DNA of 27,634 bases from Candidatus Saccharimonadia bacterium (GTDB lineage: Bacteria > Patescibacteriota > Saccharimonadia > Saccharimonadales > Saccharimonadaceae), in the NCBI GenBank assembly GCA_023257755.1, contig JALRBM010000094.1, positions 1-27,634 on the forward strand, given 5' to 3'. Below are positions 13,316-13,648 of the stretch, one piece after another. Position numbers and translations under genes: made by a program. Every line of letters starts with the position of its first letter. The stretch's first letter is position 1. The notes under the pieces are model-generated. The model had not been told where the DNA came from, did not search any database, and was given only the letters and a program-made list of their open reading frames with translations.

Positions 13316-13648
13316 ATGCTTCCCATGCCCGTCACCGCCCTCCCGGGGAACGCTGAGGCCATGGCCGACTCGGTCAACCTGAGCGAACACCGGGGGCGGG
13401 TGGTCGAGATCGTGACCGCGTCCGGCTCCACCTACTGGGTGGTGCCGCTGGCCACCAGGACCACGTTCCGCCGCCGCGGTGTGACCTGCGTGCGCGGCCT
13501 GTCGATCACCACCAACAGCGAGACGGTCAACCGGTTCCCCACCGACCCCACCGCGCTGGAGGCCGTGAACACCGTCCGCACCGGGCAGCCCTGGCGCTTC
13601 GGCGACAAGGGCACCACCAGCAACGTGCGGTCGGTCCGGGTCCTCTAG
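13316..13648 (+). CDS. Hypothetical 110-aa protein with actinobacterial-type codon usage
   Basis: Hand count: 235 of 333 nt are G/C (~71%) and 106 of 110 sense codons end in G/C. SD GAGGT lies 5 nt before the ATG. The protein looks beta-rich (VVEIVTASGSTYWVV...TTSNVRSVRVL). No family recognised with confidence. Confidence 0.85.
   Translation: MLPMPVTALPGNAEAMADSVNLSEHRGRVVEIVTASGSTYWVVPLATRTTFRRRGVTCVRGLSITTNSETVNRFPTDPTALEAVNTVRTGQPWRFGDKGTTSNVRSVRVL

Follow-up and report, generated by a model that had tools for sequence, protein, structure and literature searches.

Does an extreme codon bias betray a newly imported gene, or can it be a state that a lineage has kept for a long time? Textbooks treat a deviating GC content as the sign of recent horizontal gene transfer (HGT), and the question is raised here by the open reading frame (ORF) at positions 13316-13648 on the plus strand of a 27,634-nucleotide (nt) contig (JALRBM010000094.1, assembly GCA_023257755.1), which was analysed at its full length and is called the window below. 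The contig belongs to a metagenome-assembled genome (MAG) of a Candidatus Saccharimonadia bacterium from the Saccharimonadales (772 kb in 117 contigs, 89% complete, 51% GC). Proteins that cluster at 90% identity with its ribosomal protein L19 bear the name Candidatus Saccharimonadales or Saccharibacteria. A first-pass annotation, made from the letters of the window alone, had offered two explanations for the codon bias of the ORF: a very recent transfer from an actinobacterium or actinophage, or a maintained selection for high GC. The comparisons presented here fit the second and lend no support to the first. With a probability of about 0.6, the ORF is read as a lineage-restricted accessory gene carried in a recurring cassette, which has diverged together with its flanking genes under a maintained filter against A and T at third codon positions, with selection acting at the level of the RNA.

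Composition and coding status

The ORF comprises 110 codons and ends with a TAG stop. Only four codons end in A or T, namely CTT (codon 2), GCT (13), GAA (24), and GGT (55), and the GC content is 70.6%, so that a recount returned the earlier figures of 4 in 110 and about 71%. The G+C fractions at the first, second, and third codon positions (GC1, GC2, and GC3) are 0.60, 0.56, and 0.96, respectively, compared with a GC3 of 0.44-0.62 and a GC2 of 0.29-0.47 in the 24 remaining ORFs of the window. Crude gene calls over the whole genome give a GC3 mode near 0.55, and the value of 0.96 lies far outside this bulk, since only about 32 of 956 ORFs reach even 0.75. The switch in composition is also as abrupt as had been described: in 60-nt windows, the promoter region (13221-13310) has 22-33% GC and adjoins windows of 62-75% GC that extend from 13281 to about 13700. 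The bias is visible in the protein as well, which contains 10.9% arginine and 0.9% lysine.

Several features argue that this is a genuine protein gene at a bona fide locus. The reading frame is intact in all 10 homologues examined, at 100-118 codons, and their alignment requires short gaps only. The Shine-Dalgarno (SD) sequence and the ATG are kept across the homologues, and amino-acid motifs of the family are retained where fourfold degenerate sites are saturated. The antisense frames are open through composition and are broken in the less GC-rich copies L073 and L074. Finally, an identical protein with the same neighbours is found on three other, independently assembled contigs, and the identical gene is present in the metagenomes SRR14560408, ERZ27267726, and ERZ27267733.

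Maintenance of the third-position bias

The ORF lies between dnaE and a convergent gene for a SpoU-type methyltransferase. The same dnaE-[X]-SpoU slot is occupied by a copy with 79% amino-acid (aa) identity (L003) and, in a same-genus genome, by one with 61% identity (L007); two distant members (P0004 and P0007, 39-45% identity) again show a dnaE-[X]-SpoU-PilB-like synteny. The AT-rich promoter, leader, closing helix, hairpins, and hammerhead described below are common to the three close copies in this slot. In comparisons of the window with L003 and L007, dnaE and SpoU differ at 0.60-0.76 of their fourfold sites, for a saturation value of 0.73-0.74, and their proportion of synonymous differences according to Nei and Gojobori (pS) is 0.75-0.92. 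The shared cassette parts, together with the saturated flanks, therefore indicate that the close copies diverged inside the Saccharimonadales lineage.

Against these flanks, the ORF differs at only 0.16-0.22 of its fourfold sites. This low divergence does not reflect youth, because the ORF has about as many C<->G differences per fourfold site (0.09-0.16) as its flanks (0.10-0.16), and it is the A/T-ward changes that are almost absent. The three close copies have kept a GC3 of 0.94-0.97. Family pairs at 30-45% identity show fourfold differences of 0.35-0.70, which is about saturation for sites restricted to C and G; these differences are mostly C<->G transversions, and 85-98% of the sites are still G or C. 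Divergent Saccharimonadales copies have a GC3 of 0.69-0.97 on backgrounds of 0.35-0.73, and nearly every homologue has a higher GC3 than its surroundings.

Searches for a donor gave no candidate. No homologue of the ORF was found at E values up to 1 among 50,697 phage records and 72,556 plasmids, its sole match among GTDB species representatives was one same-genus MAG, and an exhaustive profile search of 1.84 billion protein cluster representatives returned no homologue outside Saccharimonadales-like contexts, wherever these were inspected. The lack of outside homologues, the saturation of the flanks, and the restriction of change to C<->G together lead to the conclusion that the GC3 bias is actively maintained. 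The substitution pattern points to a filter against A and T at third codon positions that has acted throughout the divergence, and in part at other positions too, as the arginine and lysine contents suggest; a decaying import seems hard to reconcile with it. A comparison of GC3 among divergent homologues from the candidate phyla radiation (CPR) had been proposed as the means to separate selection from recent transfer, and the persistently raised values fall on the side of selection. Ordinary CPR genes of about 50% GC, which the first-pass annotation had named as a finding that would refute it, are not the closest homologues; these are CPR genes that are themselves GC3-rich.

Architecture of the cassette

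Judged from its recurrence in related genomes, the ORF is the coding part of a self-contained and stereotyped cassette found across the bacterial family. Its elements follow each other in the order strong promoter, 5' hairpin, SD stretch, GC3-rich ORF, GC hairpin without a U-tract, anti-SD stretch, and type III hammerhead ribozyme (Table 1). The -35 element and most of the promoter region are conserved in L003 and L004, and the same layout is seen upstream of distant homologues. Transcription would start near 13278.

Table 1. Features of the cassette at the dnaE-SpoU junction, with positions in the window
Feature	Position	Strand	Basis and remarks
dnaE	9493-13239	+	Upstream flanking gene
Sigma-70-type promoter (predicted), TTGACT, 17-nt spacer, TATATT	13243-13271	+	10/12 matches; TG before the -10 (extended -10)
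5'-terminal leader hairpin (predicted), CGCAC...GTGCG	13280-13296	+	In the minimum free energy (MFE) fold; arms change jointly in L007 (CACAC/GTGTG)
5' arm of end-closing helix (predicted), GAAGAGATGAGG	13298-13309	+	Perfect 12-nt reverse complement of 13701-13712
Protein-coding ORF, 110 aa, GC3 0.96	13316-13648	+	Predicted small all-beta barrel; Saccharimonadales-restricted family; frame open in 10/10 homologues
Perfect 16-base-pair (bp) GC-rich hairpin without U-tract (predicted), in the 3' untranslated region (UTR)	13658-13695	+	In the MFE fold; arms covary in L003 and L007
3' arm of end-closing helix (predicted), CCTCATCTCTTC	13701-13712	+	Anti-SD stretch abutting hammerhead helix III; complementarity, MFE fold, covariation
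Type III hammerhead ribozyme (predicted)	13713-13770	+	Family covariation, MFE fold, sub-threshold match to Rfam RF00008
Hammerhead helix III	13713-13720 with 13763-13770	+	Overlap of the 3' strand with the SpoU stop codon
Hammerhead helix I	13722-13727 with 13735-13740	+
Hammerhead helix II	13748-13751 with 13756-13759	+
Hammerhead cores CUGAUGA and GAA	13741-13747 and 13760-13762	+	Columns invariant or N-variable in 22 copies
SpoU-type methyltransferase gene	13765-14328	-	Convergent flanking gene

The two arms of the end-closing helix deserve particular attention. The SD sequence GAGG (13306-13309) lies inside GAAGAGATGAGG, 6 nt before the ATG. Since a stretch of the 3' UTR is complementary to the SD region of its own message, the message could close on itself: the two arms are paired in the MFE fold of the predicted processed transcript, in which the leader is closed onto the 3' end, and the fold has a z score of -4.6. 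The arms change together in five loci, where the 5' and 3' arms read GAAGAGATGGGG and CCCGTCTCTTC (L007), TCGAGAAGG and CCTTCTCGA (L036), CGAGATGAGG and CCTCTCTCG (L037), GGGAGATGGG and CCCCTCTCCC (L038), and TTTTGAGAGGATG and CATCCTCTCAAAA (L073), a covariation that was read by eye from the arm pairs and not by formal scoring. A global duplex search of the segment before the hammerhead against 1.4 kb of upstream sequence was set aside: in the window its best site was internal, and such a search is unreliable because GC-rich ORFs confound it. Its best duplex ended just before the start codon in about 18 of 39 loci, a count that has no matched null.

No terminator-like site was called on the plus strand at 13658-13695. 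The leader hairpin precedes a T-run when read on the minus strand, where it is scored as resembling an intrinsic terminator; antisense transcripts arriving from the SpoU side could be halted there.

The dnaE-SpoU junction is a variable slot. In same-genus genomes that lack the ORF (L108, L109, and L110; G020, G151, and G180), it holds other cargo of ordinary composition, and different cargo is found there in other genera as well. The junction carries a long coding stretch in G020 and G151, called in the latter as a 394-aa coiled-coil-like ORF with a GC3 of 0.47, and a 105-aa ORF on the minus strand in G180. No prophage genes surround the cassette in the chromosome.

The predicted hammerhead ribozyme

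The assignment of the 3' element to the type III hammerheads is supported by covariation, its self-cleavage being a prediction from this membership. The catalytic core has the expected form, with CUGANGA joining helix I to helix II and GAA joining helix II to helix III. In an alignment of 22 copies from related genomes, 91.2% of the cells are paired, compared with 74% in shuffled alignments and 24-48% in slid controls. Changes on both sides are seen in 15 of the 17 pairs, a level reached by none of 500 shuffles, and covariation is present in all three helices, of which I and II are closed by loops and III is open. The pair 14-57 (A15.1-U16.1) is U-A in all 22 copies, and cleavage position 17 (column 15) carries C, U, or A in all aligned rows and never G. 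The MFE fold of the region is the hammerhead fold itself.

The match to Rfam RF00008 (clan CL00010) covers model positions 8-47 only and scores 22.8 bits (E 0.031), below the gathering score of 48.5. Helix III of this subfamily is not captured by the Rfam model, and a model built from the family (R1) scores 78.6 bits on the locus. This model detects hammerheads in 60 of 151 family genomes, at one to six copies each. The genome studied here has three, all of which come after GC3-rich ORFs. Over 42 hammerhead loci, the 300 nt upstream lie on average 9.4 GC points above the rest of the locus, compared with +1.0 point downstream; the p-values of this test overstate the case because related genomes are not independent samples.

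Protein family and predicted fold

The first-pass annotation had called the ORF an orphan. This holds for curated libraries: there was no significant match in Pfam (best E 0.26, at chance level), no match in PHROGs or PADLOC, and only chance-level SH3-type matches in a sequence profile search of the PDB (E 0.08 or worse). When 22 family members were compared with PHROGs, weak and scattered matches were obtained, the best being to phrog_16281 (annotated as function unknown; three members, E 1e-4). The label does not hold in the stricter sense, since a small uncharacterised family exists. The profile search of protein representatives gave 25 matches, of which about 20 have 98-141 residues, and none carries a functional name. 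Four large matches (P0005, P0006, P0012, and P0025) are Big_6 Ig, PQQ, or other repeat proteins and were set aside as spurious because their score is built from many weak stretches. All 10 family contexts inspected are on Saccharimonadales-like contigs of 43-57% GC. The family was found by profile search in 14 of 401 genomes of the bacterial family, in 10 of 95 genera, and is therefore a patchy accessory gene. Two loci, L074 (2692-3339) and L095 (G290:C1:425028-425663), carry two family members in tandem, adjacent or nearly so, before one shared hairpin, anti-SD stretch, and hammerhead, as a two-gene version of the cassette.

The protein has no transmembrane helix (maximum Kyte-Doolittle mean over 19 residues of 1.13) and no signal peptide, its N-terminus not being signal-like, in agreement with the earlier description. 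An AlphaFold2 model computed from 22 sequences is an all-beta barrel with a mean predicted local distance difference test score (pLDDT) of 89.6 and a predicted template modelling score (pTM) of 0.78; this agrees with the suggestion of a small beta-rich protein in the first-pass annotation. The N-terminal 20 or so residues are disordered, and about 85 residues are ordered. As a homodimer, the model scores 0.74 compared with 0.06 for the best control, a mark reached by 20 of 30 solved one-chain pairs and by 1 of 23 solved single chains; at least 93% of contacts are shared between runs, with a partner pLDDT of at least 83. The product is read as a small, cytoplasmic, and probably homodimeric all-beta barrel protein.

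The predicted fold is confident and has no known relative: searches with Foldseek (PDB and BFVD) and, more widely, with VIA-align returned nothing significant (best VIA Z 4.1; BFVD empty). The model resembles the small beta-barrels of the Sm/LSm, SH3, and Tudor types in being all-beta and barrel-like. Sm/LSm chains recur among its weak structural matches (Foldseek E 0.04-0.3, VIA Z 3.0-3.4), with a best Foldseek E of 0.039 to LSm chains and template modelling scores of 0.26-0.45, none of them significant. It differs from these small barrels in its eight strands, in the long hairpin at its centre, in the lack of a helix at the N-terminus, and in being modelled as a symmetric dimer instead of a ring. 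Membership in the Sm/LSm family is not claimed for this model. The protein evolves fast in two patches, and it would most likely be an accessory protein for conflict or host interaction.

Weighing the explanations

The favoured explanation sees the codon bias as one part of a message built to last. The hammerhead is predicted to cut the transcript after C13721 and would thereby form its 3' end in place of a terminator. The 12-bp helix would tie this cut end to the leader and cover the SD sequence, the U-less hairpin and the closing helix would protect the 3' end, and the GC-rich, heavily folded coding region would add stable structure. The outcome would be a compact, nuclease-resistant, long-lived, and translationally masked messenger RNA (mRNA), in which G- and C-ending codons are kept by selection on the nucleotides or on the RNA and not by donor ancestry. 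Several observations weigh against this account. Of the GC3-rich ORFs in this genome, no more than about 25% have a perfect 5'/3' complement of at least 9 nt (compared with 5% of its other ORFs), and a hammerhead follows only 3 of the approximately 32. As to the force behind the bias, which would be selection in this account, synonymous-codon shuffles suggest only weak extra structure in the coding sequence (z -0.7 to -2.9 in five homologues). Family GC3 varies without a break between 0.42 and 0.97, and the constraint does not hold throughout, because the most distant members lie near the background. Within the genus, the fourfold divergence of the ORF stays below its own saturation, which would also fit a somewhat younger cassette spread by recombination. 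Lastly, the ORF has a dN/dS of about 0.8-0.9, which at face value would mean weak protein-level constraint; the ratio is inflated because dS is constrained.

GC-biased gene conversion is the main neutral alternative. The bias would then be a functionless by-product of conversion, or of a different bias in fixation or mutation, at a hotspot of recombination, with cassettes exchanged often at the dnaE-SpoU slot and at similar junctions and neutral sites driven to G and C by conversion. The variable cargo of the slot within the genus and in other genera, the patchy distribution of the family, the continuous variation of homologue GC3, and the weak evidence of extra coding-sequence structure would all suit such a drive, as would the extension of the enrichment to GC2 and to amino-acid composition. 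It is nevertheless considered unlikely, since the enrichment stops sharply at the boundaries of the ORF and 3' UTR, with a promoter of 22-33% GC within the same cassette, is strongly specific to codon position, spares ordinary cargo in the same slot (GC3 0.47), and accompanies a specific RNA architecture of hammerhead, closing helix, and U-less hairpin. Somewhat less probable still is a recent move of the ORF or of the whole cassette from a host-lineage actinobacterium or actinophage of high GC, with the bias as donor composition that has yet to ameliorate. The codon usage of the ORF and its arginine-rich, lysine-poor product are of the kind usual in high-GC organisms, the family has a patchy distribution over genera, and a sister cassette (GC3 0.85) encodes an SPFH/band-7 protein that matches 362 phage records, all from actinophages and at about 45% identity, and whose named cellular relatives include Frankia and Aeromicrobium in addition to Saccharibacteria. 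However, no actinobacterial, phage, or plasmid homologue of the ORF itself was found, its C<->G differences per fourfold site are similar to those of its flanks, and three diverged copies that share promoter, leader, closing helix, hairpin, hammerhead, and slot have kept a GC3 of 0.94-0.97 while the flanks became saturated within the Saccharimonadales. A further possibility, given very little credence, is that the product is meant for the actinobacterial host: RNA or DNA would be delivered to it, or a phage would enter both partners, and host-like codons would be kept for translation by host ribosomes. The codon usage and strong SD sequence would suit a high-GC actinobacterium, the message, both ends of which would be protected, is predicted to be stable, a Tad4-like anti-Thoeris domain and a band-7 protein of the actinophage type are encoded in sister cassettes, and phages targeted by both partners have been proposed (PMC10746230). 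An SD-like motif also stands upstream of 50% of the GC3-rich ORFs and 29% of the others, in a comparison that is crude because starts were taken from the longest ORFs. If true, such cassettes would represent an RNA-level effector system between two bacteria, with a nuclease-proof mRNA. Against this, the promoter is of the ordinary sigma-70 type used by the epibiont, and the genome's own G34 and C34 transfer RNAs (tRNAs) read C- and G-ending codons; an explanation of the GC3 by the tRNA pool does not discriminate. Least credible of all is that the ORF is no protein gene, being instead a structured non-coding RNA, a shadow of the antisense ORF at 13432-13623 (-), or an assembly chimera. The unusually structured predicted transcript, the high dN/dS, and the long open antisense frames could be cited in its favour, but they are outweighed by the conserved sense frame, SD sequence, ATG, and motifs, by the breaks in the antisense frames, and by the confident fold obtained from the 22-sequence alignment. 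Moreover, no Rfam family other than the hammerhead was matched at E below 1, the others (E 3-8) being chance-like, and the junctions are identical in four independent assemblies.

Relation to known systems

Bacterial and prophage hammerheads that flank single small, non-conserved ORFs, often with a link to phages, have been described, and their role has been called an open question (Perreault et al. 2011, PMC3088659; reviewed in de la Pena et al. 2017, PMC6155905). The cassette resembles them in that a canonical hammerhead adjoins a small function-unknown gene that forms its own unit, in that the genes vary from locus to locus, and in the phage-type cargo of its Tad4-like and actinophage band-7-like sister cassettes. 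The proposal in the literature that transcripts are cut down to single-gene mRNAs by cleavage also fits. It differs from them in having a single ribozyme, at the 3' end only, after a U-less hairpin and in place of a terminator; in lying not in a prophage but at a core junction in the chromosome of a 0.8-Mb epibiont; and in the stretch 5' of helix III, which is predicted to pair with the SD region of a cargo that is persistently GC3-rich. No paper was found in the literature that joins hammerheads with Saccharibacteria or Patescibacteria, or that deals with GC3-rich gene classes in these groups.

Complementarity between the 3' UTR and the SD region of one mRNA has precedents. In the icaR mRNA of Staphylococcus aureus, 5'/3'-UTR pairing blocks ribosome binding and promotes decay (PMC3868564), and in the hbs mRNA of Bacillus subtilis, such pairing protects against RNase Y (PMC5737220). 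Unlike in these two cases, the pairing predicted here is directly beside the site at which a ribozyme would cleave and has a very GC-rich ORF between its arms, and it is repeated in one bacterial family on many cargo genes that are unrelated to each other, rather than on one regulated gene.

A different parallel is offered by the morons of phages, a concept of the Hendrix laboratory, which are single genes with their own promoter and terminator and a deviating GC content, inserted between conserved genes. The cassette is likewise a self-contained unit of promoter, gene, and 3' end, of deviating composition, between two conserved genes, and its slot holds different cargo in relatives. Unlike morons, it resides in a bacterial chromosome with no surrounding prophage genes, and its composition appears to have been maintained over long divergence and does not mark a recent arrival. 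If a class of genes has here kept its deviating GC over a long time, HGT detection by composition would go wrong in the genomes of Saccharibacteria, and possibly in others. The cassette also links three broader questions: what purpose bacterial hammerheads serve, which here would be to make the 3' end of a single-gene mRNA; whether bacteria generally use pairing between 5' and 3' ends to mask or stabilise messages; and what function is served by the rapidly evolving orphan proteins in obligate epibionts. Co-culture with a host and genetic manipulation are by now possible for some Saccharibacteria.

Sister cassettes and other GC3-rich genes

The two other hammerhead cassettes of the genome carry different cargo. 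The first (C52:6175-7274, minus strand; L081) has a 310-aa ORF with a GC3 of 0.93 and a C-terminal domain of the Tad4-like anti-Thoeris type (PF25186, E 6e-23; phrog_9822), its phage relatives being mainly from Bacillus phages. It shows a 15-nt 5'/3' complement (GACAAGCAGATGAAT), has a tRNA gene just upstream, and its leader gives a sub-threshold match to RAGATH-10 (33.6 compared with 41.2 bits). The second (C25:2974-4327, minus strand; L082/L111) encodes the SPFH/band-7 protein considered above, of 408 aa, the actinophages in question being those of Mycobacterium, Streptomyces, Gordonia, and Rhodococcus. Its actinophage and actinobacterial relatives imply a connection of the cassette class with the actinobacterial gene pool; this link is real for the SPFH cassette, and none was found for ORF 13316-13648. 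Copies of the SPFH cassette in five other Saccharimonadales genera likewise have a raised GC3 (0.69-0.86). A FastTree phylogeny of the SPFH cargo, which included four named sequences only, does not resolve the direction and number of transfers.

Three SPFH cassettes (L114, L115, and L116) have no hammerhead and instead show a conserved sequence approximately 20-110 nt after the stop codon (e.g. gcgttaggcgaacgcgtacaagcgagtagtcgcatcgtcttggc). It matches no Rfam family and may represent another conserved 3'-end RNA element.

Most of the approximately 32 GC3-rich ORFs of the genome are orphans with no Pfam family, AT-rich sigma-70 promoters, and more arginine than lysine. A -10-like TAnnnT motif lies close to the start in 12% of the GC3-rich ORFs and 27% of the ordinary ones, by a crude count. 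The genome also contains a 2.3-kb multi-gene island (C89:5651-7950) that reaches 73% GC.

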